Positions 25,661 to 41,617 of a stretch of DNA of 64,000 nt are shown one piece after another. The number at the start of each line of letters is the position of its first letter. Position 1 is the first letter of the stretch. Location: the NCBI GenBank assembly GCA_041560205.1, contig JBFFBV010000015.1, positions 1,571 to 65,570 of the forward strand. Direction: 5' to 3'. Made by a program: the position numbers and the translations under genes. This stretch comes from Candidatus Sulfomarinibacter sp. (GTDB lineage Bacteria; Acidobacteriota; Thermoanaerobaculia; Thermoanaerobaculales; Sulfomarinibacteraceae). A model generated the notes under the pieces. That model did no database searches. It worked only from the letters and a program-made list of their open reading frames with translations, and was not told the origin of the DNA.

Positions 25661-25693
25661 GAACTGAGAAGCGCTTCGCGCTTCAGCGAGCCG

Positions 25694-25819: not shown

Positions 25820-26287
25820 CTATCGATTAGCCGGTGGGGTGCCCGCGATGCTGATCGAAGCGGACGGCTGGTTCGAGTTGATCACCGCCTCGACCTCGAC
25901 CAGGGTGGTGGTCTGAAGTCGCTCCCGGAGCATGTTGTTGGCTTCAACCAGAATCTGTCCGAGGATGCACGACTCGCCGTCACAGATGGCCGAGCTCAGA
26001 AGGCACTGGCTCGGTTCGAACCGGCCCTCGATGGCTTCGAAGATCTCGAGCAGAGTCACCGACTCGGGCTCGCGGGTCAGGATGAATCCGCCCCGCGGGC
26101 CGCGAACCGAGCGCACCAGCTCGACCTTGACCAGGCGTTGCAGCACCTTCGAAAGGTGGGCTTCGGAAATCTCGAACCAATTGGCGATCTCCCGGGAGGT
26201 GATCGGTCCGTCCTCACGTTTGGCGAGGTATCCAAGGGCGTGCATCGCCAGCGACGCCGCCTCGGAGATCTTGAGAGCACGCGGCAT
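25820..26287 (-). CDS. Rrf2-family transcriptional regulator with three-Cys cluster
   Basis: wHTH ITSREIANWFEISEAHLSKVLQRLVK. QCLLSSAICDGESC (C-x6-C-x4-C) sits where IscR/NsrR-type members carry Fe-S ligands. Start is ATG 26287, with TTG 26308 as an alternative. Confidence 0.85.
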   Translation of the reverse strand: MPRALKISEAASLAMHALGYLAKREDGPITSREIANWFEISEAHLSKVLQRLVKVELVRSVRGPRGGFILTREPESVTLLEIFEAIEGRFEPSQCLLSSAICDGESCILGQILVEANNMLRERLQTTTLVEVEAVINSNQPSASISIAGTPPANR

Positions 26288-26340
26288 TTCGTTCTCCGGC
26301 TCGTTCAATGTGTCGCAGAAGTCGGCGCCGGATGGCGCCG

Positions 26341-26393
26341 TCCTTGACCTCGGTCAAGGATAGCTTGACCACATTCAAGCTAATCAGTATTGT
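26341..26393 (+). promoter_or_regulatory. Two palindromes overlapping a sigma70-like promoter for the nos electron-transfer operon
   Basis: TCCTTGACC-tc-GGTCAAGGA (26341-26360) and AGCTTGA-N6-TCAAGCT (26362-26381). TTGACC (26365-26370), 17 nt, TATTGT (26388-26393). Confidence 0.45.
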
Positions 26394-26492
26394 AATGCCG
26401 AAACTCGGATTGAGAATTCCAACACCGGCGAGACGGCAGGGGGGCATGACGAGGATCATGGTCGCCGACACTGTCACAGGAACGGGCCGGCA

Positions 26493-28451
26493 GTGGTGAG
26501 CGATTCCACCGCCACCGACCCTCGTTTTCCCGCTCGCTTCAACGAGCTGCCGTGGTACCGGACCAACGTGCCGTGCATGGAGGCTTGTCCGGTTCATACA
26601 GATTCCGGGCGTTATGTCCAGCTCATCGGCGAAGGGCGTTTCGAGGAAGCATTTTTGATCGCTCGCGCGCCAAACCCGCTCGCGTCGGTTTGCGGCCGGG
26701 TCTGCTCCGCGCCGTGCGAGGATGCCTGCCGCCGCGGCTGGGTCGACGAAGCAGTCACCATCCGGCCGCTCAAACGATTCGTCACCGAGCAATTCGGAGC
26801 CGAGTCGGCGCGCCCCGATTTCTTCAAGCTCCTGATGTCCGACCCACAGATCGACGCCGAGGCAGAGGACCCCGGGTGTCGCCGCCGGTGGCACGTGGAC
26901 CAGCTCAGCCGCGAAGAACTCGGCGGTGACCGAGCCCGGCGTGTCGCGATCATCGGCAGCGGTCCGGCCGGACTCGGCTGCGCCCACGATCTCGCGCTTA
27001 TGGGTTACGACGTCACGGTCTTCGAGGCCATGCCCGAGCTCGGCGGCATGCTCCGCTACGGGATTCCCGAGTATCGGCTTCCGCGAGGGGTCATCGACCG
27101 CGAGATCGCGGCGATCGAAAAGCTCGGTGTCACCTTTCTGACCAACATGCCGATCTCCCGCGAGTACGGACTCAGCCACCTCCGCGAGGAAGGCTTCGAA
27201 TCTTTCTTCCTGTCGGTCGGCGCAACGCGCGGCCGGGATCTCAATATCGAAGGCGCCGACAAGGACGGGGTCATCAAGGCGGTGGACTATCTCCTCAACC
27301 TCAACCGCGGCTACCGGGTCGATCTCGGAGACCGGGTCGTGGTCATCGGCGGTGGATCGGTGGCGCTCGACGCCGCGCGGACCGCAGTCCGCGAGTTCTA
27401 CCAACCGATGGAGGAGATCGAACTGACCGCCCACGCGGTCGCCAGCCAGCCAGCGATGGACGCCGCTCGCGGAGCGCTGCGAGGCGGCGCCTCCGAGGTC
27501 CACGTCATCTCTCTCGAATCCCTCGAAGAAATGCCGGCGGCGCAGACGGTACAGGGCAAGGACGAGCTCGACGAGGCGCTCGAGGAAGGCATTCTCCTCC
27601 ATCCGGGGTGGGGCCCAACGAAGATCGCCGGCGACGGGGAGGTCGAGTCCATCGAGTTCGTCGGCGTCGAGCGCGTCTTCGACGACAACGGCCGTTTCAA
27701 TCCCTCTTTCGACAAATCCCGGACGATGGTCCTCAACGCCGACTCGGTCATCCTCGCCATCGGTCAACAACCCGATTTCGACTTTCTCACCGCGGCGGAC
27801 GCCATCGAGCTGAGCCCGACCGGAACGGTCAAAATCGACCCCGACACCCTGGCGACGACCGCCCCCGGCGTCTTTGCCGGCGGCGACGCCGCCTTCGGTC
27901 CCCGCATCGCCATCGAGGCGGTGGCCAACGGCAAACACGCTGCGCGCTCGATCCACGAGTTCCTGTCGGGCACGGCCGCCGAGACGAAGATGCGGGTCGC
28001 AATCGATCTGATCCCAGCCGCCGAGTACGCGATGCCCGAAGTCTATGAAAAGAAGAGCCGCCGGGCGGCGCCGACGGTTGCCTCGGGCCGACGTACAGGG
28101 ATCACCGAGGTCGAAGAGGTGATGTCTCCGGAGCAGGCCAGGAACCAGGCCGAGCGCTGCCTGTCGTGCCATGTCGACACCATTTACGACCCGCACCGTT
28201 GCGTGCTGTGCAACCGTTGCGCGGACGTCTGTCCCGAGAAGTGTCTGACCTTTCTACCCCTTGATCGGGTCGAGATGCCGGTCGAACAGCTCGAGAAGGC
28301 GATCGAGGCCTATGGCCATGACCCGGATGAGCCCATGACCGTCCTTCTCAAGGACGACACGATCTGCATACGCTGTGGGCTCTGCGCGGCGCGTTGCCCG
28401 ACCGAGGCGATCACCATGGAACGCTTCAACTTCATCGAATCAACGGGGTGA
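26493..28451 (+). CDS. GltD/NfnB-like NAD(P)H-dependent Fe-S flavoprotein with C-terminal 2x[4Fe-4S] ferredoxin domain
   Basis: GTG start. N-terminal Cys clusters (CMEACP, CGRVCSAPCEDAC), Rossmann loops IIGSGPAG and VIGGGSVA, GVFAGGD. C-terminal CVLCNRCADVCP and CIRCGLCAARCP. No signal peptide. Confidence 0.8.
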   Translation: MVSDSTATDPRFPARFNELPWYRTNVPCMEACPVHTDSGRYVQLIGEGRFEEAFLIARAPNPLASVCGRVCSAPCEDACRRGWVDEAVTIRPLKRFVTEQFGAESARPDFFKLLMSDPQIDAEAEDPGCRRRWHVDQLSREELGGDRARRVAIIGSGPAGLGCAHDLALMGYDVTVFEAMPELGGMLRYGIPEYRLPRGVIDREIAAIEKLGVTFLTNMPISREYGLSHLREEGFESFFLSVGATRGRDLNIEGADKDGVIKAVDYLLNLNRGYRVDLGDRVVVIGGGSVALDAARTAVREFYQPMEEIELTAHAVASQPAMDAARGALRGGASEVHVISLESLEEMPAAQTVQGKDELDEALEEGILLHPGWGPTKIAGDGEVESIEFVGVERVFDDNGRFNPSFDKSRTMVLNADSVILAIGQQPDFDFLTAADAIELSPTGTVKIDPDTLATTAPGVFAGGDAAFGPRIAIEAVANGKHAARSIHEFLSGTAAETKMRVAIDLIPAAEYAMPEVYEKKSRRAAPTVASGRRTGITEVEEVMSPEQARNQAERCLSCHVDTIYDPHRCVLCNRCADVCPEKCLTFLPLDRVEMPVEQLEKAIEAYGHDPDEPMTVLLKDDTICIRCGLCAARCPTEAITMERFNFIESTG

Positions 28452-28456
28452 GAGCT

Positions 28457-29005
28457 GTGGCATCAACAGAAACGATTCCGAGCGATGTTCGAGTCTCCGG
28501 TGACCAGGCGAAGCCGACGCGGCGGGGTTTCCTCGGGCGGTTGACCGCCGCAGTCGCGGCGGCCGGCGCCCTGGTCGCGAGCTGGCCGCTGCTGCGGTCG
28601 CTGGTCCCGAATGTGCTCTACGAGCCACCGAAGAAGTTCCGCATCGGCGCACCCGAGAGCTTCCAGGAAGGGGTGACCTTTCTCGAGGAACACCGGCTCT
28701 TCCTGTTTCGCGAGCGCTCGAATTTCCACGCCATCTCCGGCATTTGCACCCACCTCGGTTGCACGGTGAAGTTTTCGCCCTTCACGCTGCCGCAGGAAGA
28801 GACCGTTCGTGATTTCGCCTACCGCGCCCTCGGCGAGTTCCACTGCCCGTGCCACGGCTCGAAGTTCAGGGGTGAAGGCACCAACTACGCGGGCCCCGCT
28901 CCGCGGCCGCTCAAGTGTTTTCACCTCGAGGTGTCACCCGCGACCGGCGAGCTGGTGGTCGATGTGTCGAACGAGGTCTCGCGCGACTTCAGATTGGTGG
29001 TCTAG
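28457..29005 (+). CDS. Rieske [2Fe-2S] subunit with Tat signal
   Basis: RRGFLGRL twin-arginine motif plus hydrophobic helix. CTHLGC and CPCHGS cluster boxes. Start is GTG 28457 (or GTG 28448, overlapping the upstream stop). Confidence 0.85.
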   Translation: MASTETIPSDVRVSGDQAKPTRRGFLGRLTAAVAAAGALVASWPLLRSLVPNVLYEPPKKFRIGAPESFQEGVTFLEEHRLFLFRERSNFHAISGICTHLGCTVKFSPFTLPQEETVRDFAYRALGEFHCPCHGSKFRGEGTNYAGPAPRPLKCFHLEVSPATGELVVDVSNEVSRDFRLVV

Positions 29006-30502
29006 ATGATCCTTCAGAGACTCACCGGCCTCTGGGACAAGCTGATCTGGCCGTGGCGGCCCGAGTCGAACCGCGAGGCGGGCTCGGGCATCGTCGCCAA
29101 CTTCCTCCTCCACTGGTTTCCCAATCGGATCTCGCTCCGCAGCCTCAAGTTCTCGGCCTCGATGTATCTCGGCACCATCACCTTCGTCGTCTTTATGGTT
29201 CTCACCGTGACCGGCGTCGTGCTGATGTTTCTCTACGTGCCGTCGGTGGAGCGCGCGTACTGGAGCATCAAGGACCTCGACCACGCGGTGAGCTTCGGCT
29301 GGCTGCTCAGACGGCTGCACCGGATCTCGGCCCACCTGATGGTGGCGCTGGTCTTTCTCCACATGTTCCGGGTCTTTCTCACCGGCTCGTACAAAGCCGG
29401 TGAGATCGTCACGTCGGCTCGCCCCTTCAACTGGGTGCTCGGTGTGACGCTGCTGGTGTTGACGTTGTTGCTGAGCTTCACGGGTTATCTCCTGCCGTGG
29501 GATCAGCTCGCCTTCTGGGCGATCACGGTCGGCACCAACATCGCGGCGGCCGTTCCATGGGTGGGGGAGACGATCCGCCAGTTCCTGCTCGGTGGCACCA
29601 TCATCGGCCAGCCGACGCTGATCCGCTTCTACGTCCTCCACTGCGCCCTGCTGCCGATTGCGCTCTTCGCCATCGCCGCCTGGCACATGTGGCGGATCCG
29701 CAAGGACGGCGGCCTCGCGATCGTCGAGCAAGACCGGCAGGAGGCGCTGAACCGAGAGCCGGCGGTGCCGAAGAAAAGCAAGACCTACAGCGTCCTCGGC
29801 ATCGCCAGCGGCACCACGGTCCAGGTCAACGACCCAACGACCCTCAACGAATCAAACTCGGTGCCATCGACGCCGTTCCTCACGGTTCGCATCCTGGTCG
29901 TGACATTGCTCACGATCGCAGTTTCGATCGGTCTGTCCCTGGTCGTGCAGGCGCCGCTCGAGGAGGCCGCCAACCCCGAGGTCACCCCCAACCCGGCCAA
30001 GGCGCCATGGTACTTCCTGGGTCTGCAGGAGATGGTCGGCTACTCGGCGCTGATGGGCGGGGTGATCGTGCCGACCCTGGTCATCTTCGGCCTCATGCTG
30101 ATCCCCTTCCTCGACCGCGAGCAGGGCGGCATCGGTCTCTGGTTCACGGACGGCGCCGGGCGCAAATGGGCGGTCTTCGGCTTTCTCTACGGAGCGATCA
30201 CGACCTGCGGATGCCTGGTGCTGGCGATCCTCGCTCCGACGCGCGACATCTTTCCGACCATCGAGAGCCAGTTCTTCTTCGATCTCGTCAACCCGGCGAC
30301 CTTTCTGCTGGCGCTCTTCGCGGGCATGTACTTCGTGGTCCTCAAAAAGACGGCGTCGACGCGCTACGCAGCGATGGCGACATTCTGCGCTTTCATCATC
30401 TCCTTCATCATCCTGACCTATACCGGCACCTCTCTGCGCGGGCCGAACTGGGACTTCTTCTGGCCGTGGCAGGCGTGGCCGGCCCACCCGATGGCGCTGT
30501 GA
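29006..30502 (+). CDS. Cytochrome b (fused b6 + subunit IV type) of a Rieske/cyt b complex
   Basis: Starts directly after the Rieske stop. Haem His pairs are [15 protein letters not shown] (14 apart) and [16 protein letters not shown] (15 apart, the b6-type spacing). The C-terminal half carries PWYFLGLQE, a PEWY-type Qo motif variant. Confidence 0.85.
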
Positions 30503-30510
30503 GGTAGACG

Positions 30511-31734
30511 ATGATCAAAAAGATTAGCCAGCGCGAAATCCAGCTGCTGCTCGTCGCCGCCGTCGCCATCCTCGTGGTCGGCGTGGCGGTCATTTTCGTC
30601 GACACCTCACCGGAGTGGAAGTACTACCAGTCAGAGTTCGAGGCCATCGTCGCCGAGAACATCGCCGACGTTGACCCATCATCCCTGCCGTGGGGGATCC
30701 AGCAGATCTGGGTGGAGAAGCTCGATCGTGTCGACCGCTGCACCACCTGTCATCTCGGCATGACCTGGCGCGGCCTCGAGAACATCGAGCAGCCGTGGAC
30801 CACCCACCCGATGTCCGGCATCTTCGACGACCACCCGATCGAAGAGTTCGGCTGCACGGTCTGCCACGGAGGGCAGGGCTACGCCCTCACCGAGTACGAC
30901 GCGCACGGTTTCGTCGAGCATTGGGAGGAGCCGCTGCTGTCGGACATTGCGGCCTCTGAATACGATCCGCGCAACCCGCCTCCGCTTCACGAGATCCAGT
31001 GCAACTTCTGTCACCGCTACGAACGCTCGACCGAGGGCATGCCCTATATCAACAAGGCCAAAGAGCTGGTGCGGACCAAGGGCTGCAAGATCTGCCATGT
31101 CATCAACGGCACCGGCGGCAAGCTCGGGCCCGATCTGACCCGGGTCGGCGACAAGCACGCGGAGGGCTTCGATTTCTCCAACCTCGTGTCGGATCAGATG
31201 ACGGTCTTCAACTGGCACATCAAGCACTTCCAGTCACCGCCAACGATCGTACCCGGCTCGATCATGCCGGAGATGAACTTCCAGTCATCCGACGCCCACG
31301 CGCTGGCGATGCTGGTCATGAGCTGGCGCGACGACGAGGATCTCCCTCGCGCCTTCCTGCCGGGCGTCGAGCTCAAGGACGAGATGACGCCTGAGGAGGT
31401 CGAGCGCGATCGCCGGATGCGCGAAGGCGACGGCGCCTTCTTCGTCGAGCACAGCTGCTTCGTCTGTCACAGCATCAAGGCCTACGACATCAAATCGCCG
31501 ACTGAAAAAGGACCGGACCTTTCGCTCGCTCCGGATGACGTTCGGGTCAGATTCAACAAGACGGTCGAGGAGTTCCTCTTCGACCCGACCGGCACGATGA
31601 AGATCATTCTCGAGAGCCAGATCGTGCTCACCGACGAGGAGAAATGGCAGGCCGTCGAAAAGATCATGAAGGCCTACGACATCGTCAAAAACAGGGAAGC
31701 GGCGGCCGAGGCCGCCGCCGCAAGCGGTTCGTAG
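30511..31734 (+). CDS. Membrane-anchored pentahaem c-type cytochrome
   Basis: N-terminal TM. Five CxxCH motifs: CTTCH, CTVCH, CNFCH, CKICH, CFVCH. The last two sit in class-I-like units (GPDL...MPEM). Confidence 0.85.
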   Translation: MIKKISQREIQLLLVAAVAILVVGVAVIFVDTSPEWKYYQSEFEAIVAENIADVDPSSLPWGIQQIWVEKLDRVDRCTTCHLGMTWRGLENIEQPWTTHPMSGIFDDHPIEEFGCTVCHGGQGYALTEYDAHGFVEHWEEPLLSDIAASEYDPRNPPPLHEIQCNFCHRYERSTEGMPYINKAKELVRTKGCKICHVINGTGGKLGPDLTRVGDKHAEGFDFSNLVSDQMTVFNWHIKHFQSPPTIVPGSIMPEMNFQSSDAHALAMLVMSWRDDEDLPRAFLPGVELKDEMTPEEVERDRRMREGDGAFFVEHSCFVCHSIKAYDIKSPTEKGPDLSLAPDDVRVRFNKTVEEFLFDPTGTMKIILESQIVLTDEEKWQAVEKIMKAYDIVKNREAAAEAAAASGS

Positions 31735-31761
31735 CACCGCATAACAAGGAGGAGGCAGCAG

Positions 31762-33669
31762 ATGAACAATAGAAAGACAATCTTTCGACTGATGATCGCG
31801 CTGGTCGTTATCGGGCTCTTCGTCGGGCTTGCGGCGTGCGGCAAGAAACCGCCGCAGCGGCGCGGCGCACGCGCCGGCGGCGGCGGCACATCCGACCTCA
31901 CGAGCGCGGCTCTGGCGACCTACGTGGCGCCTGGTGACCTCGACGAGTACTACCTTTTCTACTCGGGTGGTCACAGTGGCCAGATCTTTGTCTCCGGCAT
32001 CCCGTCGATGCGCCACATCGCGACGATCCCCGTCTTCACCCCGTATCCCGGCACCGGCTACGGTTTCGACGACGAGACAAAGGAGATGCTCGGTGGCTAC
32101 TCGTGGGGAGATTCCCACCACCCAGGCTTCTCCGAAACTGGCGGCGAGTACGATGGCCGCTGGCTCTTCATCAACGACAACGCCAACGGCCGCATGGCTC
32201 GGATCGACTTGAAAGACTTCAAAACCAAGCAGATTCTGAGCATTCCGAACATTTCGGCCAACCACGGCAGTTCGTTCGTCACCCAGAACTCGGAGTACGT
32301 CACCATGGCGACCAGGATGTCTGTGCCGTTCCCCGAAGGCACGTACGCCGATGTCACCGAGTACGCCACCAAGTACAAGGGAATCGTGGCAGGGATCAAG
32401 ATCGATCCCGACGACGGCAATCTGACCCTTGGTTGGGAAATCCTGGTGCCGCCGTTCAACTACGATCTCGGTGATTCCGGAAAGGGTCCGTCCGACGGAT
32501 TCCTCTTCTGGACCTGCTACAACTCGGAACGCGAGTTCATCGAGGGCGGCAAGCTCGAGGTGACGGCTTCCCAGAAGGACAAGGACTTCATCCTGATGGT
32601 GGACTGGCGCGAGGCCGAGAAGCAGATCGCGGCCGGCAACTTCACGACCGTCAAAGGCGCCCCGGTCATCGATCCCGTCAATGCACCCGGAGTTGCCTAT
32701 TTCATGCCGCTTGCGAAGTCACCGCACGGGGTCGACGTCTCTCCGACCGGTCAATGGATCATCGGCTCGGGCAAGCTGTCGCCGACCACGACCGTCTACG
32801 ACATCGAAAAGATCAAAACGGCCATCGCCAACAAGGACTTCGAGGAGACCATCGACGGCATCCCGGTGCTGACCTACAACTCGGTCCGTGAAGCCGAGAT
32901 CCCGGTCGGGCTCGGTCCGCTCCACACCCAGTTCGACGACAAGGGCTACGCTTATACCTCACTCTTTGTCGAGAGCGCGGTCGCCAAGTGGAAGCTGCCG
33001 CCGTACGAGGCCGGCAACGACATGAACCAGTACATCGTCGACAAAATCCCGGTCGCCTACAACATCGGTCACCTGGTATCGGCGGAAGGCGACTCGATGA
33101 ACCCCGACGGCAACTACCTGGTCGCCCTCAACAAGCTTTCCAAGGGTCGCCATCTCTCCGTGGGACCATCGATTCCGGAGTCGGCGCAGCTGATTGACAT
33201 CTCGGGCGACAAGATGAAGCTTCTCTATGACGCCTTCACCGAGCCCGAGCCCCACTACGCTGTGATTATCAAAGCCGACAAATTGGATCCGGTCGAGATC
33301 TACAAGAAAGACGATCCGTACTGGCACAAAAACCCGAACGCCACGTGGACGACCGAAGACGCGCGGATCGAACGCCGTGGCAATACGGTCGAGGTATGGA
33401 TGATGGCTGTTCGTTCCTTCTTCGCACCTGACGTGATTCGAGTCAACAGGGGCGACAAGGTCATTGTCCACGTGACCAACATCGAGCAGACTCGGGACGA
33501 GCTGCACGGCTTCGCCATCGACAACTACAACATCAATCTGGTGATCGATCCTGGTGAAACCAAGACGGTGACCTTCACCGCAGACAAGTCCGGCGTCTAC
33601 GCGTTCTACTGCACGAACTTCTGTAGCGCACTGCACCAGGAGATGCAGGGCTACTTCCTCGTGAAATAG
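31762..33669 (+). CDS. nosZ: Nitrous-oxide reductase NosZ, clade II (atypical), predicted lipoprotein
   Basis: CuA motif CTNFCSALHQEM at the C-terminus. CuZ region DSHHPG is of DxHH type, lacking the third His of clade I. Further His motifs: SPHGVD, GPLHTQFD, NIGHL. The signal peptide ends in lipobox LAAC with no twin-Arg. Strong RBS AAGGAGGAGG. Confidence 0.92.
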   Translation: MNNRKTIFRLMIALVVIGLFVGLAACGKKPPQRRGARAGGGGTSDLTSAALATYVAPGDLDEYYLFYSGGHSGQIFVSGIPSMRHIATIPVFTPYPGTGYGFDDETKEMLGGYSWGDSHHPGFSETGGEYDGRWLFINDNANGRMARIDLKDFKTKQILSIPNISANHGSSFVTQNSEYVTMATRMSVPFPEGTYADVTEYATKYKGIVAGIKIDPDDGNLTLGWEILVPPFNYDLGDSGKGPSDGFLFWTCYNSEREFIEGGKLEVTASQKDKDFILMVDWREAEKQIAAGNFTTVKGAPVIDPVNAPGVAYFMPLAKSPHGVDVSPTGQWIIGSGKLSPTTTVYDIEKIKTAIANKDFEETIDGIPVLTYNSVREAEIPVGLGPLHTQFDDKGYAYTSLFVESAVAKWKLPPYEAGNDMNQYIVDKIPVAYNIGHLVSAEGDSMNPDGNYLVALNKLSKGRHLSVGPSIPESAQLIDISGDKMKLLYDAFTEPEPHYAVIIKADKLDPVEIYKKDDPYWHKNPNATWTTEDARIERRGNTVEVWMMAVRSFFAPDVIRVNRGDKVIVHVTNIEQTRDELHGFAIDNYNINLVIDPGETKTVTFTADKSGVYAFYCTNFCSALHQEMQGYFLVK

Positions 33670-34368: not shown

Positions 34369-34381
34369 AAGGGAAGGAATC

Positions 34382-34885: not shown

Positions 34886-34987
34886 CCGACGGATCTTTCG
34901 AATCGAACGACGGCGCGCCGCGGAAGTAAACTGCCGGGGCGCAGCGTGTGCTATATCTGACATCTTGATCAACGGGGAGAAAAAGTC

Positions 34988-36376
34988 GTGAAGCGAGCCC
35001 TCTGCCTGCTGGCCGCGATGTGGTCGGTGACCACCGTCGCCGCGGTCCACGAGGTGCCGGTTGGCGGGTCGATCTCTGCCGTCCTCGACCAGGCTTCGCC
35101 GGGCGACACGGTGCGCCTCGCGGGTGCGGTCTACCGCGAGAACATCGTCATCGGTGTGCCGGTCGTGCTCACCGGCAGGGAGGGAACGGAGATTCGTGGC
35201 GGATACGAGGGCAACGTGGTGCACATCACGGCGCCCGGAACCGTGCTGGACGGTCTCCACATTGCCGAGGCCGGTCCCCATTTGACCAAGGACATGGCGT
35301 GCGTACTGGTCGAAGCCGACGAGGTGACGATTCGCAACTGCAGGATCTCGGAATCGCTGCACGGAATCTACGTCAAAGCCGGGAACGGCACCGAGATCGT
35401 CGGCAACAGCGTCGAAGGCCGGCTCGACCTGATCGAGGCCGACCGGGGCAACGGCATCCATCTCTGGAACTCGTCCCAAAACCTCGTCGCGGCAAACGAG
35501 ATCTTTAACGTCAGGGACGGCATCTACTTCTCGTTTGCCCATTTCACCGAGGTCGAGCGGAACCACATCCACCACGTGCGCTACGGCCTCCATTACATGT
35601 ATTCAAACAACAATTCCTTCTACGACAACCTCTTCGAGAGGAACGTGGCGGGTGCTGCGCTGATGTACTCCGAGGACATCGTTTTCGCGCGCAACACTTT
35701 TGCCCGATGCCGGGGATTTCGCGCCTACGGCATCCTGCTGCAATCGATGAGCCGGGTCACGGCCACCTCGAACCTGATCATCGACAACAGCCGCGGCATT
35801 TTCATGAACAACGCGGACTCGAATCGCATCGAAAGCAACGACGTCGTTGACAACGACCTCGCTGTCCAGCTCAACGGCGGCTGCGATGCCAATCTGCTGG
35901 TTCGCAACAACTTCATCAACAACCTGTCGGAGCTGCTGCTCGACGTCAGCGACCTCGAGACGCGGTGGGCCGACGACGCCGGGGGCAACCACTGGAGCGG
36001 CTACCGCGGGTATGACCTCAATGGTGACGGCGCCGGCGACCTCCCGTTTTCGATCCAAAACGTCTTCCAGGTTCTCGAATCCAAGGTGCCGGAAGCCCGG
36101 TTCTATCTGCTCAGCCCGGCGGCCGAGGTGCTCAAGGCCGCCGAGCGCGCCCTCCCCATACTCCGGCTCGGCGACGCCGAGGACCCGCTGCCATCGCTCC
36201 TGCCGATCGCCAACGATGCGGTTCCCTGGCAGGCTGTCGACAGCGCTCGGCTCGATGGCAGCCCCCTGGCGGCGTCGATTTTTCTCGCCGGCAGCGCATT
36301 TCCGGTCGCGTCGTTGTGGTACCTCGGTCGGCCGCGAAGGTGGAGAAGAAACCGCGGCGCGAAGGGTAGTGAATGA
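34988..36376 (+). CDS. nosD: NosD periplasmic beta-helix copper-centre maturation protein
   Basis: Sec signal. Repeated parallel beta-helix units (NGIHLWNSSQNLV, RDGIYFSFAHFTEV, RYGLHYMYSNNNSF, RGIFMNNADSNRI). C-terminal membrane-proximal segment. Confidence 0.88.
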   Translation: MKRALCLLAAMWSVTTVAAVHEVPVGGSISAVLDQASPGDTVRLAGAVYRENIVIGVPVVLTGREGTEIRGGYEGNVVHITAPGTVLDGLHIAEAGPHLTKDMACVLVEADEVTIRNCRISESLHGIYVKAGNGTEIVGNSVEGRLDLIEADRGNGIHLWNSSQNLVAANEIFNVRDGIYFSFAHFTEVERNHIHHVRYGLHYMYSNNNSFYDNLFERNVAGAALMYSEDIVFARNTFARCRGFRAYGILLQSMSRVTATSNLIIDNSRGIFMNNADSNRIESNDVVDNDLAVQLNGGCDANLLVRNNFINNLSELLLDVSDLETRWADDAGGNHWSGYRGYDLNGDGAGDLPFSIQNVFQVLESKVPEARFYLLSPAAEVLKAAERALPILRLGDAEDPLPSLLPIANDAVPWQAVDSARLDGSPLAASIFLAGSAFPVASLWYLGRPRRWRRNRGAKGSE

Positions 36377-37308
36377 GTCCGGTGAGCGACCCGATGGTCC
36401 GATTCGAGGGCTTCGCTAAGTGCTACGGCTCCCTCGAAGCGGTCAAACCGCTCGATCTGGAGATCGCGGAGGGGGAGTCCTTCGCGCTGCTCGGGCCCAA
36501 TGGTGGCGGCAAGACGACGGTGCTGCGCGCCCTCGTCGGACTGCAGTCCCCAACCGACGGCAAGATCTTCGTCGCCGACGTCGACATCACCGCACAACCC
36601 GACGAGGTGCGGAGGCTCTTCGCCTACGTCCCGCAACGGGTGACAATGCCCGACGTGCTCACCGCGCACGAGATCCTGACGACCTTCGCCGGGTTGCGGG
36701 GCATGAGCGAAGATCGGGTGGCCGAGGTGTTGAATCTGCTGGCGCTGACGGATGACGCCGATCGACAGGTCGGTGAGTTCTCCGGCGGTATGGTGCAGCG
36801 CCTCGGGCTCGCCGCAGCACTGCTCGAAGAGGTTCCCCTCCTGGTGTTGGACGAGCCGACCCTCAATCTCGACCCGCAGGGCATCGACAGCCTGCACCGG
36901 GTGCTCACCGAGCTCAACAACCGGGGCACGACCATTATCTTCTCGTCCCACAGCATTCACTCCGCCGTCCAGCTCGCCGACAGGGTCGGCGTCATGGTCG
37001 AGGGCGCTCTCGTGGTGTCGGAGCCGGTCGCGAAATTTCAGGCCGAGGTCACCCGCCAGACGACGGTCCGGGTGGTCCTCGACCGGCTCGATGACGCGAT
37101 TCTCCACGCGGCCCAAAAAGCCGGCGCCGATGTGCGCGAGTGCAACGCGACCCACGTGTCGTTCCGGGCCTTGCCGGAGGCGAGGCTCGAGGTGATTCGG
37201 GCGATCGAGAAGGCCGGAGGCACGATCGAAGAGTTCCACACCGAGGCGCCGGGTTGGGAATCGCTCGTGCAGACCCATTTCAACGGCGGGGGAGAGAGGC
37301 ATGAATGA
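36373..37308 (+). CDS. nosF: NosF ABC-type ATPase
   Basis: ATGA overlap with nosD. Walker A GPNGGGKTT, signature SGGMVQR, Walker B LLVLDEP. Confidence 0.88.
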   Translation: MSPVSDPMVRFEGFAKCYGSLEAVKPLDLEIAEGESFALLGPNGGGKTTVLRALVGLQSPTDGKIFVADVDITAQPDEVRRLFAYVPQRVTMPDVLTAHEILTTFAGLRGMSEDRVAEVLNLLALTDDADRQVGEFSGGMVQRLGLAAALLEEVPLLVLDEPTLNLDPQGIDSLHRVLTELNNRGTTIIFSSHSIHSAVQLADRVGVMVEGALVVSEPVAKFQAEVTRQTTVRVVLDRLDDAILHAAQKAGADVRECNATHVSFRALPEARLEVIRAIEKAGGTIEEFHTEAPGWESLVQTHFNGGGERHE

Positions 37309-38074
37309 GCATGGCCGCGCACCGACCCGGACCGCACATGCGATCGCCATCGTGCTGCTGCCGGTGATCGCCGTTGGGTGCGTCGGCGAGCCGACACCAC
37401 AGATCACGAGCGGCATCGACGGTTGCGCGAGCTGCGGTATGGTGATCGACCGTGGCAACGAGGCCGCCGGGTGGGTCGACGGACGGGAGTTCATGCCATT
37501 TTGCTCCCCCGGCTGCCTGCTGACCGAGTACGATGCCCTGCGCCACTCGGACCGTCCGAAGCCGCAGACCCTGTTCTTCGCCGACTACAACTCCGGCGCC
37601 TTCTCGACCTCGGCCGAGACCGCATTTCTGCTCACCGACCACGTGCCGACGGTGATGAGTGGACGCGTGGTCTGCTTCGGCTCACTGGCCGCCGCCGACG
37701 CCATGCGCCAGCACGACGACGAGACCGTCACCGACTGGACCGGCTTCCGCATCCGACGTGGAACTCCGGACACGGTCATCGAGGCGGTCTTCGGACCCGA
37801 CGGCATGGTTCCCGATAGCGTCGTCGCGAACAAGGGCGATATCGTCCTGTGGCGTTACTCAGGAGAGGACCTGACCCAAGACATGGCCTGGACCATTACG
37901 GGATATCCGGAGGTCGAGCCTCCGCTCGTGACCGCATCCGGTGAAACAGCCGAGGTCAGGTTCATGGCGACGCGGCCCGGCGCGGGTTTCCCGATCGAGC
38001 GTGCCACCGGCGGCAAGCCGCTCGGCATGCTCAAGGTGAGCGGCGCCCACACCCTGGACGAGGCGGCCCAATGA
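37301..38074 (+). CDS. nosL: NosL copper-chaperone lipoprotein with about 100-aa C-terminal extension
   Basis: Lipobox AVGC. The NosL core is DGCASCGMVIDRGNEAAGWVDGREFMPFCSPGCLL. Residues from about 150 to 257 are additional and look cupredoxin-like in beta-strand pattern but contain no Cys or His. Confidence 0.75.
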   Translation: MNEHGRAPTRTAHAIAIVLLPVIAVGCVGEPTPQITSGIDGCASCGMVIDRGNEAAGWVDGREFMPFCSPGCLLTEYDALRHSDRPKPQTLFFADYNSGAFSTSAETAFLLTDHVPTVMSGRVVCFGSLAAADAMRQHDDETVTDWTGFRIRRGTPDTVIEAVFGPDGMVPDSVVANKGDIVLWRYSGEDLTQDMAWTITGYPEVEPPLVTASGETAEVRFMATRPGAGFPIERATGGKPLGMLKVSGAHTLDEAAQ

Positions 38075-38898
38075 GGTCGGCGGTACTGCAGATCGCGCAC
38101 CAGGAGTTTGCACTCCACCGACGCAACCGCTGGGTCGTTTCTTTTGCGATCCTGTTCGCCTCACTCAGCCTCGCGGTCGCGTACTTCGGAATGATCACCT
38201 CCGGCTACACGGGCTTTCAGGATTTCGTCCGTACCTCGGCCAGCCTGATCAACCTGGGCGGGTTTCTGCTGCCGCTTTTCGCGCTGCTGCTCGGGGTCTT
38301 CAGCTTCCTCACCGATCGCGAGTATCTCGAAATCCTCGCCACCCAGCCCGTTTCCCGCCGCGGCATCCTGCTCGGAAAATACCTCGGTCTGTTGATCTCG
38401 GTCCTCGCGGCCGCCGCCCTCGGTTTCGGTCTCCCCGGCGTGGTGATCGCGACCGCAATCGGCGTCGAGGGCGCCGGGACCTACCTCGTGGTCGTGTTCT
38501 TTTCCTGTCTGCTGGCGGCCGTCTTCACGGGGTTGTCGGTCCTCATCGCGCTGCTCGCCGGACGACGACCGGTCGCACTCGGCGTCGCGGTCGGTGTGTG
38601 GATCGTCTTCGAGCTCGTCTATGGGCTGCTGATGTTGGCGACAACCCTGTACCTGCCACCAGCAATCGCGAAAAACGTGCTGCTCGTCGGTCTCGGCGGC
38701 AATCCGATCGACGTCGTACGGGTGCTCTGTCTGCTCGAGGTCGGAGGCCCACACCTCTTCGGCCCGGCCGGGGCGACCCTGGTCAAACTCACCGGGTCAA
38801 GCGCTGTCACCATGGTCATCGGGCTCGCTCTCATCGGCATATGGATCGTGACCCCGGTGCTTCTGTCCATCCGGGTATTTCAGAGGCAAGACCTCTGA
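38071..38898 (+). CDS. nosY: NosY ABC-2 type permease
   Basis: ATGA overlap with nosL. Six-TM ABC-2 permease pattern. Operon context with nosD and nosF. Confidence 0.85.
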   Translation: MRSAVLQIAHQEFALHRRNRWVVSFAILFASLSLAVAYFGMITSGYTGFQDFVRTSASLINLGGFLLPLFALLLGVFSFLTDREYLEILATQPVSRRGILLGKYLGLLISVLAAAALGFGLPGVVIATAIGVEGAGTYLVVVFFSCLLAAVFTGLSVLIALLAGRRPVALGVAVGVWIVFELVYGLLMLATTLYLPPAIAKNVLLVGLGGNPIDVVRVLCLLEVGGPHLFGPAGATLVKLTGSSAVTMVIGLALIGIWIVTPVLLSIRVFQRQDL

Positions 38899-39377
38899 TG
38901 GTCGCTGCGAGAACGGCCCGCGTTCGGACCTTGACGTCGGCTGTTCTCGCGTTCCTCATCGCGCTGCCGGTTCTTCAGTTCCCCCCTCTCGGCTCGGCTG
39001 TAGTGACATCGAAGCCGCGGACGACGGTCACGATGTCGTGCGTCGGCTGCTGTGGTTCGAACTGTCAATGCGCCGGCGACTGCTGCGGCGACACCCATGT
39101 CGAGAAGTCGAACCCGGCGCCACCCGCTTGGTCTGTAGCCGAACGAGTTTCACGGGATCGCGATTGCCAGCGGGGCGGCTGGTTGCTGCCCACCGCCACC
39201 ACGAGCTTCCAGCCATGGACCCGGTCCCCCAGAGCACTCCGGCTCGGGATGACGCGGATTCACCTCGTGGAATCGCTCGAGGTCATGTGCCGGTGGCGGC
39301 GCCCGGCGATCTCGCAGAGCAATCCACGTGCCCCGCCGAGCAGCGGCCCCTCGCCCATCGATCGTCTCATCGGTTGA
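38898..39377 (+). CDS. Hypothetical Cys-rich exported or membrane-anchored small protein
   Basis: ATG shares one base with the nosY stop (TGATG). N-terminal RxR plus hydrophobic helix LTSAVLAFLIALPVL, then CVGCCGSNCQCAGDCCGD (8 Cys in 18 residues). Third-codon positions are mostly G/C along the whole ORF. The distal half is Arg/Pro-rich and less convincing. Confidence 0.45.
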   Translation: MVAARTARVRTLTSAVLAFLIALPVLQFPPLGSAVVTSKPRTTVTMSCVGCCGSNCQCAGDCCGDTHVEKSNPAPPAWSVAERVSRDRDCQRGGWLLPTATTSFQPWTRSPRALRLGMTRIHLVESLEVMCRWRRPAISQSNPRAPPSSGPSPIDRLIG

Positions 39378-39457
39378 TCGTTCCACAACGCTGCCCGGTG
39401 CCGGCTCCAGCAGGCCACCGATGGCAAACCGTGTCTGGAACAGCGAAGGGAGAGCTC

Positions 39458-41617
39458 ATGCAAGGGAAGGAGCCTCTATCGTGTCGATTGCGCGTGGCGT
39501 CGATCGTCGTCTGCCTCGCGGCGGTGCCACCGTTTGCTGTCGCGGACGATGAACAGCCGCCTCGCAACCCGGAGGCGCTCACTCAGAGTGAAGAAAAAGC
39601 GGCGCCGATTCCGATCGTCCGCGCCGAAATCGAAGTATTTGGAAAAATCGCCAAAACCCCGGCTGTCACGACCCTGGAGGCAGCCGATCTTCGCAGCGGC
39701 CAGTCGCGAGATGCCGGTGACCTGTTGCGTATCGCACCGGCCGTCAGCTCCGGGCGGATGGGAGGCCACGGACTCGACCCACGAATCCGTGGCCTCGGAG
39801 AATCAAGCATCCGCGTCCTGATCGACGGCGCCGAGATCCATGGTGGATGTCCGAACCGGATGGACCCGCCATCGTCCTTTGCGGCCGCCGAAAGTTACGA
39901 CCAAGTCGTCGTGGTGCGCGGTGTGCAGACGCTTCGCTACGGGACCGCGCCCGGCACCGTGCTGTTCGAGCGGCTTCCCGTTCGATTCTTCGACGACAGC
40001 TGGTGGCGCGCCTCCGCCAACGCGGTTGCCGGCACCTCCAACGACGGTCCGGCGTTCGGAATCAGCGCCGCTGTCGGCACCTCGAAGTTCTCGTTCGATA
40101 TTTCGGGCGATCGTCTCAAAATGGACAGCTACATCGATGGCAACGGCGACGAGGTGGCGTCTGCATTTGACAGCGTCAACGGCGCTCTCGCCCTTGGCTG
40201 GACGCCGGACGCTCTCACCTCGGTTCGTCTTTCGTACGAGCTCAATCGAACGGTTGACGCCCTCTACGGCGGCGCGGCGATGGACAGCCCGGATTCGGAG
40301 ACCGATGCTGTCCGCTTGAGGTTTCGTCGCGATGCCGGCGACGGTGTCGTCGGCCAAATTCGGGGAGACCTCTACTGGACCGACGTGTCGCACGTGATGG
40401 ACAACTTCTCGCTGCGAGAATGGACGGCGCCGATGGCCATGAGCGCACCATCCACGTCGAAATCCACTGGCGGTCGCCTGTGGGTCGATATCGATCCGAC
40501 CGAGCGATTGGAGCTCTCCGCGGGTCTCGACCTCGCCCACAACGATCGGCAGGCGCTTCGCTTTGCCGGTCCAAACCCGGACAGCGTTTTGATGCTGCAG
40601 TCGGTGCTCTGGCCCGAGGTCGACCTCGAACAAAACGGTCTGTTCGTCGAGGGTCGGATGGGCGTCGGAGCCGCCAGCGCACTACGATTCGGCCTCAGGG
40701 GCGACCGCTTCAACGCCAAAGCCGCCGCAAAGGATGTCAAGCCGGCGGGTATGAGCCCCACTCCACGGCAGCTCTGGGAGAGCTATTACGGTCCTGTCGA
40801 AGACAGCTGGGAGCAGCATATCGTCGGTGGTTTCGCCCGCTACGAACACCGTCTGTTGGCACCCAGAATCGGCTTCTTCGCGGGCGTCAGCCGGACTGCC
40901 CGGGCGGCCGATACGACCCAGCGGTTCATGGCCGGCAACAGTTCGATCGCGCCCAAACGGTGGGTTGGCAACCCGCTCCTCGAGGTCGAGATCCACAACC
41001 AAATCGACCTCGGGATCGAGTATGCGGGCTCGACCGGCGATTTCGAGGTGGCGGTCTTCGCCGATGACGTGGACGGCGCGATCCTCCGTGACCGCGCCCA
41101 CGGCCAGCCGGGCATCTTCAAAAACGACAACGCCACGATCTACCGCAACATCGAGGCTCGGAGACTGGGAGCAGAAATCGTGGGCTCCTGGCGAATCGGA
41201 CAGGCCTTCCACGTCGGCGGTGATGCGGCCTTCGTCTGGGCCCAGAATACGACCGATGACCGGCCGATCGCTCAGACACCGCCACTCGAAGGGAGCCTTT
41301 TCGCATCGTGGGTGAGCGGCCGCTTCAGAGCTTCAAGCGCCGTGCGCTGGGCGGCGGAGCAGACGCGAGTCGACGACAATCCCGTGACCGGCAGCGGTCT
41401 CGATGTCGGTCAGACTCCGGGCTGGGTGATCCTCAACCTGTCCGGTCAGGCACGTCTCGGTCTCGGGTTCGGGTTGCTCGCCGGTGTCGACAACGCGTTC
41501 GATCGGGCCTACGCCTATCACCTCAACCGCGACAACTTCTTCGACCCCGCACCGGTGCAGATCAACGAACCCGGCCGCACCTTCTGGCTCCGCCTCCGCT
41601 GGTCGGGCAATGGATGA
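39458..41617 (+). CDS. TonB-dependent outer-membrane copper receptor (OprC/NosA-like)
   Basis: ATG 39458 after GAAGGGAGAG, with a signal peptide. Plug motif IDGAEIHGGCPNRMDPP contains CxxxM, and SHVMD (HxM) lies about 181 residues later. This is the spacing I recall for the OprC copper site. The ORF-track extension to 39038 is rejected. Confidence 0.85.
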   Translation: MQGKEPLSCRLRVASIVVCLAAVPPFAVADDEQPPRNPEALTQSEEKAAPIPIVRAEIEVFGKIAKTPAVTTLEAADLRSGQSRDAGDLLRIAPAVSSGRMGGHGLDPRIRGLGESSIRVLIDGAEIHGGCPNRMDPPSSFAAAESYDQVVVVRGVQTLRYGTAPGTVLFERLPVRFFDDSWWRASANAVAGTSNDGPAFGISAAVGTSKFSFDISGDRLKMDSYIDGNGDEVASAFDSVNGALALGWTPDALTSVRLSYELNRTVDALYGGAAMDSPDSETDAVRLRFRRDAGDGVVGQIRGDLYWTDVSHVMDNFSLREWTAPMAMSAPSTSKSTGGRLWVDIDPTERLELSAGLDLAHNDRQALRFAGPNPDSVLMLQSVLWPEVDLEQNGLFVEGRMGVGAASALRFGLRGDRFNAKAAAKDVKPAGMSPTPRQLWESYYGPVEDSWEQHIVGGFARYEHRLLAPRIGFFAGVSRTARAADTTQRFMAGNSSIAPKRWVGNPLLEVEIHNQIDLGIEYAGSTGDFEVAVFADDVDGAILRDRAHGQPGIFKNDNATIYRNIEARRLGAEIVGSWRIGQAFHVGGDAAFVWAQNTTDDRPIAQTPPLEGSLFASWVSGRFRASSAVRWAAEQTRVDDNPVTGSGLDVGQTPGWVILNLSGQARLGLGFGLLAGVDNAFDRAYAYHLNRDNFFDPAPVQINEPGRTFWLRLRWSGNG

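Follow-up and report, generated by a model that had tools for sequence, protein, structure and literature searches.

Gene organization of the nos locus and its conservation in relatives

A stretch of 64,000 nucleotides from Candidatus Sulfomarinibacter sp. (contig JBFFBV010000015.1), hereafter called the window, contains at positions 25820–41617 a group of genes for nitrous oxide (N2O) reductase (NosZ), electron transfer, NosZ maturation, and a predicted TonB-dependent copper receptor. This interval was studied by Pfam and NCBIfam annotation of 13 cluster proteins, and all coordinates given below are those of the window. On the + strand, densely packed genes are headed by a divergently oriented gene for an Rrf2-family regulator; the genes from 26493 to 41617 are all co-directional, and their junctions range from −8 to +102 nt. 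Judging from its gene content, the interval is very probably the clade II nos cassette of a marine-sediment, Ca. Sulfomarinibacter-like member of the Acidobacteriota (Thermoanaerobaculia), which is the best explanation overall.

A check of the translations recovered every sequence feature reported in an initial annotation of this DNA, and the junction overlaps of 4, 8, 4, and 1 nt were exact. All of the genes in its list were present, but the list lacked four electron-transfer genes (26493–31734). The absence of nosR, apbE, and nosG/H/C1/C2 that it had noted was borne out by the domain scan, in which no NosR, ApbE, or NapGH-like domains were detected in the cluster or in the scanned open reading frames (ORFs) of the window with at least 200 amino acid (aa) residues.

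To compare the locus with its relatives, one genome per species was scanned, which gave 48 loci. The nearest loci were found in metagenome-assembled genomes (MAGs) of Ca. Sulfomarinibacteraceae and Ca. Sulfomarinibacter kjeldsenii, with NosZ identities of 91–92%; a "type-II" N2O reductase of Ca. Sulfomarinibacter has already been reported (PMC8528874). When the window proteins were mapped onto the loci, a fixed order was obtained: flavin adenine dinucleotide (FAD)/iron-sulfur (FeS) protein, Rieske protein, cytochrome b (cyt b), cytochrome c (cyt c), nosZ, nosB, a lipoprotein gene, nosD, nosF, nosL, and nosY. This 11-gene order was intact in about 18 loci with NosZ identities of 75–92%, and carriers of the whole cassette were L001–L012, L031, L038, L041, L044, and L046. 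The carrier MAGs are labeled as Acidobacteriota, Gemmatimonadota, Latescibacterota, Zixibacteria, KSB1, and Calditrichota, that is, at least six phyla. Sharing of the cassette across phyla suggests either recent lateral spread among sediment bacteria or binning or taxonomy errors. The GC content falls to 0.59–0.60 at 32–36 kb of the window, compared to 0.64–0.66 in the flanks. In Sulfomarinibacteraceae, the cassette lies at one chromosomal site, with a PHP-domain gene on one side and shmt on the other. The more distant loci (NosZ identity of 44–67%) retained nosZ-nosB-nosD-nosF-(nosL)-nosY and often the four electron-transfer genes as well, and most of them were without the extra lipoprotein and the long NosL.

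The order D-F-L-Y had been described as a departure from the usual arrangement. It is indeed present here, but it is no exception: the same order was found in every locus of this branch with a NosL, ruling out a quirk of this locus. Because plain NosL genes fill the same slot between nosF and nosY (L013, L014, L023, L040, and L045), D-F-L-Y is the rule in this branch.

In one Sulfomarinibacteraceae MAG (L043:4000-17200), nearly all cassette genes (those for the FAD/FeS protein, Rieske protein, cyt b, cyt c, NosZ, NosB, and NosD) gave split, overlapping tblastn pieces. These pieces point to many frameshifts, which may represent a decaying cassette or indel errors of long reads.

Clade II NosZ and predicted lipoproteins

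The gene nosZ (31762–33669, + strand) encodes an N2O reductase with a lipoprotein signal ending in LAAC (Cys26). The protein scored 852.9 bits on the Sec-dependent NosZ model TIGR04246 (cut-off, 625), 493 bits on the twin-arginine translocation (Tat)-type model TIGR04244 (below 625), and 187 bits on the model of L-NosZ (clade III). Its N-terminus, MNNRKTIFRLMIALVVIGLFVGLAAC, has no RR pair and matched no TAT model. Its C-terminus carries CTNFCSALHQEM, and its CuZ motif is GDSHHPG. All seven CuZ His residues and the CuA H/C/C/H/M ligands aligned to solved NosZ structures; GDSHHPG lies opposite GDCHHPH of the solved proteins, and the third His of the clade I motif DxHHxH is absent. Thus the CuA motif, DSHHPG, the LAAC signal end, and the lack of a twin-arginine motif are all seen in the translation, and the agreement is much greater than chance would give. 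The assignment to clade II proposed in the initial annotation is upheld by the Sec-type model, which was above its cut-off and outscored the Tat-type model, and by the Sec signal, the downstream nosB, and the absence of nosR.

Lipoprotein signals were examined with a scripted version of the PROSITE PS51257 lipobox rule, [LIVMFWSTAG]2-[LIVMFYSTAGCQ]-[AGS]-C, with the Cys at positions 15–35, no charged residue among the six before it, and a K or R within residues 1–7. NosZ (Cys26), the protein encoded at 34382 (Cys17), and NosL (Cys27) passed, and the other 10 of the 13 cluster proteins failed; these are exactly the three proteins that had been named as lipoproteins. Among homologues, the full rule was passed by 22 of 27 NosZ, 14 of 18 NosL, and 16 of 18 sequences of the 34382 protein, and the failures were near misses. 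A Cys follows the h-region in 26 of 27 related NosZ N-termini despite their divergent signal peptides, and a Gly/Arg/Pro-rich linker of about 25 residues lies behind Cys26. NosZ is therefore predicted to be Sec-exported, with a conserved lipobox Cys followed by a flexible linker.

In our search of the literature, a lipoprotein NosZ in diderm clade II organisms was not found described, and an earlier mention is possible. The host is presumably diderm because a TonB-dependent receptor and ExbBD-TonB are encoded. Gram-positive denitrifiers (Bacillus azotoformans and Geobacillus; PMC3475470) are similar in that their NosZ is of clade II and nosZ is followed by a gene for a protein with four transmembrane (TM) helices, that their electron carriers are lipoproteins or membrane-bound, and that N2O reductase activity is located in their membrane fraction. 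They differ in that the predicted lipoprotein is the cytochrome NosC, whereas here it is NosZ itself.

Electron-transfer genes upstream of nosZ

The first gene of the cassette (26493–28451, + strand) encodes a GltD-like, FAD- and nicotinamide adenine dinucleotide (phosphate) (NAD(P))-binding FeS protein of 652 aa, which matched PRK12771 of NCBIfam with 421 bits. Its domains are Fer4_20 (DPD-type FeS) at the N-terminus, Pyr_redox_2 (FAD/NAD(P)), and a 2x[4Fe-4S] ferredoxin domain at the C-terminus; the hydropathy scan found no hydrophobic segment, and the protein was read as soluble and cytoplasmic. This gene always adjoins the Rieske and cyt b genes in related loci. The Rieske [2Fe-2S] protein (28448–29005, + strand; PF00355, PF10399, and TIGR01409) has a twin-arginine signal, RRGFLGRL, and its gene starts at GTG 28448, with a 4-nt overlap, or at GTG 28457. 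The following gene (29006–30502, + strand) encodes a cyt b in which a b6-like N-terminal part is fused to a subunit IV-like part (PF00033, E = 4e-44; PF00032), with about nine hydrophobic segments by hydropathy. The best models for this protein were ExtP-like (243 bits) and ExtQ-like, both below their cut-offs. The fourth gene (30511–31734, + strand) encodes a membrane-anchored pentaheme cyt c with CxxCH at residues 77, 115, 164, 192, and 316, a hydrophobic segment at residues 5–23 predicted as an N-terminal helix, and weak Cytochrom_C matches.

The gaps along these genes into nosZ are −4, 0, 8, and 27 nt. The four genes lie directly 5′ of nosZ in unchanged order in more than 20 loci from several phyla, with NosZ identities of 49%–92%. 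From sequence and synteny, they constitute a predicted quinol-oxidizing module that is directly upstream of, and translationally coupled to, nosZ. The Rieske/cyt b architecture of nos loci is already known in general, because clade II clusters have been drawn in this way: Fe-S, Rieske, cyt b, and cyt c genes are placed upstream of nosZ in nosZII-bearing phyla (PMC13122619, Fig. 2A). The FAD/FeS gene at the front of the module is more unusual.

The same gene set is found in the Rieske/cyt b complexes of anammox bacteria (Kuste4569-4574 and Kustd1480-1485), for which quinol-driven NAD(P)+ reduction by bifurcation has been proposed (PMC12954380). These complexes include a cytoplasmic NAD(P)-binding subunit with FAD and multiple [4Fe-4S] clusters, a Rieske protein, a b6/subunit IV cyt b, and a multiheme cyt c. 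They are linked to an HAO-like protein, whereas the genes described here are linked to NosZ. The parallel is an architectural one drawn by gene content, and bifurcation is a proposal even for the anammox complexes.

NosB and a three-helix lipoprotein

The gene downstream of nosZ (33733–34368, + strand), which had been described as nosB-like, encodes a membrane protein of 211 aa, and its homology was established by BLASTP to the NosB of Sulfurimonas denitrificans (ABB45043.1; E = 4e-16, 25% identity over 200 aa). It begins 64 nt past the nosZ stop codon, and nosB is directly downstream of nosZ in all of the more than 40 loci. In the Kyte–Doolittle analysis of NosB, three segments were above the threshold (21–39, 90–108, and 180–198), and a fourth, aromatic-rich segment at about 112–135, recognized partly by eye, was below it.

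The next gene (34382–34885, + strand) encodes the previously noted extra protein of 167 aa, a predicted lipoprotein, which passed the lipobox rule at Cys17 and matched no Pfam or NCBIfam family. All of its 442 homologues are annotated as hypothetical, and an exhaustive profile search of 1.84e9 proteins gave 37 representative clusters, including many fragments. The gene lies between nosB and nosD in 18 loci. The lipoprotein thus belongs to a narrow family that is specific to this nos cassette. The AlphaFold2 (AF2) model had a mean predicted local distance difference test (pLDDT) score of 85, with a core above 96, and consisted of an extended linker and a three-helix bundle (helices 59–94, 97–125, and 131–166). 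A Foldseek search with this model gave no PDB fold match below E = 0.4. The distant members of the family have ordinary signal peptides and lack Cys120. Because there is no invariant His and C120, the only conserved Cys, is lost in these members, a metal site is unlikely, and the protein was not retained as a candidate metal binder. It could conceivably be a non-metal-binding adaptor or chaperone of NosZ/NosB assembly, a role that we propose with low confidence.

A weak relative of the three-helix family (hhalign probability, 65%) with a signal peptidase I (SPase I) signal was found in a Bacteroidota nos locus (L014:16151-16531), after nosY and before a CxxxM-HxM receptor. In addition, a giant protein of 5347 aa (P0269) from the library of representative proteins showed 14 matches to the first-helix region of the family (profile positions 52–96; E = 6e-19), and the first-helix motif may therefore also occur as a repeat.

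NosD, NosF, NosY, and a NosL-cupredoxin fusion

The product of nosD (34988–36376, + strand) is a periplasmic beta-helix protein with a Sec signal, which matched PF05048 (E = 1e-42) and scored 387.8 bits on TIGR04247 (cut-off, 300). Located between nosD and nosL, nosF (36373–37308, + strand) overlaps nosD by 4 nt and encodes an ATP-binding cassette (ABC) ATPase (PF00005, E = 3e-29); nosY (38071–38898, + strand) overlaps nosL by 4 nt and encodes an ABC-2 permease (PF12679, E = 9e-20).

The nosL gene (37301–38074, + strand) encodes a lipoprotein of 257 aa with Cys27. The label nosL given in the initial annotation stands by way of the family profile, but the single protein was under the threshold of the Pfam NosL family PF05573 (15.8 vs. 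24 bits; E = 0.018). Of its 18 orthologues, 17 matched PF05573 (best E = 9.6e-14), and their profile matched Pseudomonas stutzeri NosL (7OSF_H, E = 4.7e-9; 7OG7, E = 7.6e-4). The NosL domain covers residues 38–145 approximately, and the lipobox and a CxxCxM motif are invariant in the family. It is followed by a C-terminal domain of about 105 residues (approximately 155–257) with invariant M169 and H250 and no Cys. In the AF2 model of the protein (pLDDT, 88.6), this domain resembled the folds of CuA, the EfeO N-domain, Cupredoxin_1, FtrB, and the CuA domain of NosZ (Foldseek, E of about 1e-5 to 1e-6), and the model thus indicates a cupredoxin fold.

Three loci (L027, L029, and L039) have a gene for a plain NosL and, following it, a distinct gene of about 135 aa. 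The product of this second gene combines a Cupredoxin_1 domain (27.2 bits in L039) with a signal or TM helix, and its C-terminal motif matches that of the domain in the window NosL. The occurrence of these separate genes after nosL indicates that the window NosL is best read as a fusion of two neighboring genes, which favors a functional partnership between the cupredoxin and NosL. The predicted maturation set thus comprises NosB, NosD, NosF, NosY, and the lipoprotein in which NosL is joined to a cupredoxin-fold domain. Compared to the NosL-NosDFY relay of P. stutzeri (PDB 7OSF-7OSJ and 7ZNQ), the NosL-homologous N-domain, its lipoprotein nature, and the presence of NosD, NosF, and NosY are shared. 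The window NosL differs in its extra cupredoxin-fold domain with invariant His and Met, and it has diverged enough from known NosL to miss the Pfam threshold.

Predicted OprC/NosA-type copper receptor

The last gene (39458–41617, + strand) encodes a TonB-dependent receptor of 719 aa with Plug and barrel domains, which matched the copper receptor OprC of P. aeruginosa (6FOK) with E = 3e-68, in agreement with its earlier description as OprC-like. In the phmmer alignment (residues 79–715), its CPNRM and HVM correspond to CPNRM and HIM of OprC, and C131, M135, H312, and M314 form an intact CxxxM-HxM site. The corresponding copper ligands of OprC are C143, M147, H323, and M325 (PMC8610252). The receptor thus resembles OprC and NosA of P. 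stutzeri as a member of the 22-strand TonB-dependent receptor family with all four ligands, and it is linked to NosZ, as was first claimed for NosA. It is distant from OprC, and its host belongs to the Acidobacteriota. Moreover, nosA and oprC of Pseudomonas are unlinked to nos, whereas the gene for the window receptor follows a Cys-rich candidate leader ORF within a predicted clade II nos operon.

The pair of Cys-rich ORF and receptor is not part of every cassette. In L002, nosY runs straight into shmt without such a pair; the only pair in L001 is divergent, lies on the opposite strand (convergent), and includes a receptor 27% identical to that of the window. Because the pair is missing in the former and divergent in the latter, NosZ maturation does not appear to require it; by this comparison of loci, the receptor and the Cys-rich ORF are a lineage add-on outside the conserved cassette. 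Receptors beside nos in L001, L011, and L014 were 22–27% identical to the window receptor and had the same four ligands, and the one in L039 was without them. The presence of divergent copper-site receptors near nos indicates that such receptors were recruited beside nos genes several times. This repeated recruitment is comparative support for the old and disputed link between NosA and NosZ.

An ExbB-ExbD-ExbD-TonB operon is located at 51876–54237 (+ strand), 10 kb downstream of the receptor gene, and could energize the receptor.

Cys-rich ORF between nosY and the receptor gene

The Cys-rich ORF noted in the initial annotation (38898–39377, + strand; 159 aa) is a real gene that is conserved in relatives. 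The family comprises six protein clusters and a member in L003 and, more distantly, one in L001, and the ORF always lies between nosY, with a 1-nt overlap, and a 720-aa receptor, behind a spacer of 80–90 nt. The G+C content at third codon positions (GC3) is 0.76, typical of coding sequence. With the six clusters, the two loci, and the conserved motifs, this GC3 rules out a spurious high-GC ORF. The protein has a hydrophobic helix at 11–29 following basic residues, and a cluster of C48, C51, C52, C56, C58, C62, C63, and H67 (C48-x2-CC-x3-C-x-C-x3-CC-x-D-x-H67) in addition to C90. P143-R144-[A/G]-P146-P147 is invariant in the eight sequences. Outside these motifs, the sequence drifts (8 of 30 residues identical at 101–130; 40, 38, and 51 differences at the three codon positions). 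Divergent versions precede the copper-site receptors in L001, where FCCCVGECSCSGSCCNH is followed by SPRGPPP, and in L014, where an ORF of 127 aa (L014:16656-17039) contains the Cys cluster HCAESCQCTDNCGCGCKG and no RAPP. The spacer before the window receptor gene (39378–39457, 80 nt, + strand) ends in the Shine–Dalgarno (SD) sequence GAAGGGAGAG and lies within a C-rich, G-poor stretch (39310–39400). No RNA family was found in an Rfam scan of 25–42.5 kb at E ≤ 1.

CruR of Bordetella pertussis (Bp2923) and CutF of Rhodobacter capsulatus are copper-sensing leaders of the DUF2946 family; they are exported and poorly structured, and their sequences contain a copper motif of Cys residues and, at the C-terminus, an arrest-like motif that is RAPP or Pro-rich. 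Encoded upstream of a TonB-dependent transporter or a cuproenzyme, they act in cis through ribosome pausing. The Cys-rich ORF shares with them a length of about 145–160 aa, an N-terminal export signal, Cys motifs (here CxxC at 48–51 and CxxxC at 58–62), a conserved C-terminal RAPP (PR[A/G]PP), weak conservation of the remaining sequence, and the position of a TonB-dependent transporter next to it after a spacer. We liken the ORF to these leaders by analogy and do not place it in their family; it has a much larger Cys cluster, and its host lies outside the Pseudomonadota.

Rrf2 regulator and candidate promoter region

The divergent gene at 25820–26308 (− strand) encodes an Rrf2-family regulator of 162 aa (PF02082, E = 2.5e-31), in which C102, C109, and C114 are spaced like Fe-S ligands. 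It scored 99.4 bits on TIGR00738 (cut-off, 73.3) and fell far below the cut-offs of all equivalog models (NsrR, IscR, and RirA), with 45.8 bits against 182 for NsrR and 59.9 bits against 207 for IscR. In most related loci, an rrf2 gene lies beside the cassette, in one orientation or the other.

The region between rrf2 and the first cassette gene contains a candidate operator/promoter (26343–26400). A perfect palindrome, CCTTGACCtcGGTCAAGG, at 26343–26360 was conserved in four Sulfomarinibacteraceae loci, and a promoter-like TTGACC-17-TATTGT was found at 26365–26393. An inverted-repeat-like element, GTATTnnnAAT(A/G)C (GTATTnnnAATAC-like), at about 26385–26400 overlaps the −10 hexamer and was conserved in seven loci. 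Within 25000–42500 (17.5 kb), the only sigma70-like matches were a divergent pair in this spacer; the scan was based on the sigma70 consensus, which is weak evidence in an Acidobacteriota. No terminator-like site was present in any + strand intergenic gap. The + strand terminator-like matches were weak (stems of 5–6 bp) and all inside coding regions, and internal terminators were rejected; the total of 18 matches was not far from the 11.8 ± 3.9 in shuffled sequences. Rrf2 control of the cassette is plausible from adjacency and the conserved candidate operators, and the chances are about even that an Fe-S-type Rrf2 regulator controls a promoter in the divergent intergenic region.

Proposed electron and copper supply and alternative explanations

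The predicted proteins suggest that the nos cassette probably works as a membrane-associated N2O-respiring module. Electrons would likely pass from quinol to the Rieske protein, the pentaheme cyt c, and the CuA site of lipid-tethered NosZ without soluble carriers. For copper, a path from the receptor through the periplasm to NosL(-cupredoxin), NosD/FY, and NosZ, as in the P. stutzeri relay, also seems rather probable. The Cys-rich ORF may act like CruR and CutF, in which case copper on the nascent exported peptide would alter ribosome pausing at PRAPP and gate the transcription or translation of the receptor gene, so that the receptor would be made only when copper is scarce; we put this forward tentatively, as somewhat short of an even chance.

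Several observations weigh against parts of this interpretation. Under the Escherichia coli +2 rule, all three lipoproteins would be sent to the outer membrane, a location ill-suited to a supercomplex with inner-membrane cytochromes, although the E. coli rule may not be that of this phylum. LAA|C in the single NosZ sequence is compatible with an SPase I site, the three-helix lipoprotein has neither a fold nor a family match, and the window NosL alone was under the Pfam threshold. The receptor scored 472.0 bits on TIGR01778 (TonB-copper), just below the cut-off of 472.45, and the scored ORF had a spurious N-terminal extension. The missing pair in L002 and the divergent pair in L001 also count against an obligatory copper receptor step. 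For the Cys-rich ORF, no Pfam match to DUF2946 (PF11162) was found in any of the eight family members at E ≤ 10, which counts against membership. The distance from Cys to RAPP is 45 residues in CruR, whereas it is 53 (C90–R144), and about 80–95 from the cluster, in the Cys-rich ORF. RAPP lies 10–13 residues from the C-terminus, compared to three in CruR and CutF, and these leaders head operons, whereas the Cys-rich ORF overlaps nosY at an operon tail. The fold of the spacer was not above that of shuffled sequences (z = −0.54 for the single sequence), and the pairing of the receptor SD with the Pro codons after RAPP (P = 0.5–0.83 in four homologues) was equal to that of composition-matched shuffles. 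A conserved stem-loop hiding the receptor SD was considered, and these results speak neither for nor against it.

NosZ might instead be an ordinary soluble periplasmic enzyme, with an incidental Cys and cleavage by SPase I. LAA|C fits an AxA-like SPase I site, some NosZ homologues have non-canonical −1 residues (LADC and LSTC), the NosZ of L021 is without the Cys, and diderm NosZ is described as soluble in the literature. Since the Cys is at +1 behind the h-region in nearly all related NosZ, most of which pass the full PS51257 rule, and is followed by a low-complexity linker typical of lipoproteins, we regard a soluble enzyme as improbable. The Rieske/cyt b genes could likewise encode a general or other respiratory complex, for example, an Ext-like one for metalloid or metal reduction, with NosZ fed elsewhere. 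This is suggested by the best-matching models of cyt b, ExtP and ExtQ, which belong to an operon for selenite/tellurite reduction, and by L017, L019, and L026–L029, which have nosZ and no electron-transfer module within the locus DNA examined. It appears highly improbable in view of the conserved order of the four genes right before nosZ across several phyla, their gaps of 0–27 nt into nosZ, published drawings that include such genes in clade II nos clusters, and the failure of both Ext scores to reach their cut-offs.

In the main rival to the leader model, the product of the Cys-rich ORF would be stable and either membrane-anchored or periplasmic, and as a Cu(I)-thiolate (metallothionein-like) carrier it would pass copper from the receptor to NosL. 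Seven invariant Cys and a His in 20 residues exceed what a sensing CXXC needs; a hydrophobic helix lies at the N-terminus, copper-site receptors strictly accompany the protein in three divergent arrangements, and the ATGA overlap of its gene with nosY suggests translation at the level of nosY. The low conservation outside the motifs is unlike that of a folded carrier and like that of the poorly structured CruR, and a carrier would have no evident use for the invariant PR[A/G]PP close to the C-terminus; a carrier is thus rather unlikely, and both roles could coexist. The leader-type reading bears in turn on the claim of the initial annotation that the locus is one self-contained unit of about 15 kb, with a single Rrf2-controlled promoter and the receptor as its integral closing member. 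Electron supply, maturation, and the OprC-type receptor are indeed encoded co-directionally with tight or overlapping junctions, promoter-like matches are confined to the rrf2 intergenic region, the + strand gaps contain no terminator-like site, and the 1-nt overlap of nosY and the Cys-rich ORF is found in every carrier. The claim describes this genome but not the system: the pair does not follow nosY in L002, is divergent on the opposite strand in L001, and was not found within the locus DNA examined for most other cassette loci. The Cys-rich ORF bears the hallmarks of a post-transcriptional copper gate, suggesting that the receptor is gated separately and in a copper-dependent manner, which argues against simple one-promoter control. 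The consensus promoter scan is of little weight in this phylum, and the gaps of 102 and 80 nt could hold unrecognized promoters. We consider the single unit doubtful and prefer to read the receptor pair as an addition to a conserved 11-gene cassette.

By analogy with the anammox complexes, the Rieske/cyt b core may also split the two electrons of quinol within a lipid-tethered N2O-reducing supercomplex with Cys-cluster/RAPP-gated copper supply, although we rate this combined proposal as a speculative one that is improbable at present. One electron would pass through the Rieske protein and the pentaheme cytochrome to NosZ (N2O/N2, very high potential), and the other through the b hemes and four Fe-S clusters to FAD, reducing NAD(P)+. 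If this were true, N2O respiration would make NAD(P)H directly, and its copper supply would be set through an OprC-type receptor gated by arrest peptides of the Cys-cluster/RAPP type, a family unrecognized so far and distinct from DUF2946.

Comparison with known clade II systems

To our knowledge, NosZ is the only known biological sink of N2O. Clade II NosZ is dominant in many environments, and its electron and copper supply is known from very few model organisms. The cassette offers for testing a dedicated Rieske/cyt b route that includes an NAD(P)-binding subunit, a membrane-tethered NosZ, and two uncharacterized accessories, namely the three-helix lipoprotein and the cupredoxin, a partner of NosL that in some cases is part of the same protein. 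With the Cys-cluster/RAPP ORF, copper-sensing leader peptides would no longer be confined to the Pseudomonadota and the DUF2946 model. The link between NosA and NosZ has been disputed since the 1990s, and the repeated adjacency of OprC/NosA-type receptors to nos provides genomic evidence on it.

Clade II nos cassettes of the Rieske/cyt b type, to which the locus belongs, are a known kind, and its organism group was already known for clade II NosZ. The locus resembles the published systems (PMC13122619 for the nosZII clusters and PMC8528874 for the NosZ of Ca. Sulfomarinibacter) in the Sec-type NosZ, nosB directly downstream, nosDFY(L), the absence of nosR, and the Rieske, cyt b, cyt c, and Fe-S genes upstream. 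Beyond those clusters, it has the lipobox of NosZ, the cassette-specific three-helix lipoprotein gene between nosB and nosD, the NosL-cupredoxin partner or fusion, and the Cys-cluster/RAPP candidate leader with an OprC-type receptor after nosY. These four features are apparently undescribed: none of them was found in the literature searched, and an earlier mention is possible. As far as the nosZ-B-D-G-C1-C2-H-F-Y-L cluster of Wolinella succinogenes is described in the source citing Hein et al. (2017), the Sec-type NosZ, NosB, and NosDFYL are shared with the window locus. The W. succinogenes cluster has an NosGH quinol dehydrogenase and the monoheme cytochromes NosC1/C2, both of which are absent from the window locus. 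Unlike that cluster as so described, the window locus encodes Rieske/cyt b, the pentaheme cytochrome, and the FAD/FeS subunit in cis and has the order D-F-L-Y.

Other genes in the window

The PHP-domain gene bordering the cassette is preceded at 21486–24555 (+ strand) by genes for a stand-alone receiver protein and an 859-aa protein with PPDK_N and phosphoenolpyruvate (PEP)-utilizing mobile domains. The latter, which lies just upstream of the PHP-domain gene, has the architecture of a PEP synthase or a rifampicin phosphotransferase-like protein. The region at 11771–20777 encodes two cytidylate kinase-like proteins, one of them with CBS domains, a Na+/sulfate-type symporter, a beta-carbonic anhydrase, a dCache histidine kinase with a receiver, and a TauE/SafE sulfite exporter-like protein, and it may be a sulfur or anion transport island. 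On the other side of the cassette, the gene at 47413–50325 (− strand) encodes a 970-aa protein with a TonB_C domain at its C-terminus in addition to a response-regulator receiver and a Ser/Thr protein kinase domain, an unusual fusion that joins phospho-signaling to a TonB-like periplasmic domain. The ExbB-ExbD-ExbD-TonB operon is followed by genes for a DUF4388 protein and a TPR protein (54247–56350). Near the start of the window (648–3086, − strand), the selenocysteine-specific elongation factor SelB is encoded, which indicates that the organism makes selenoproteins.

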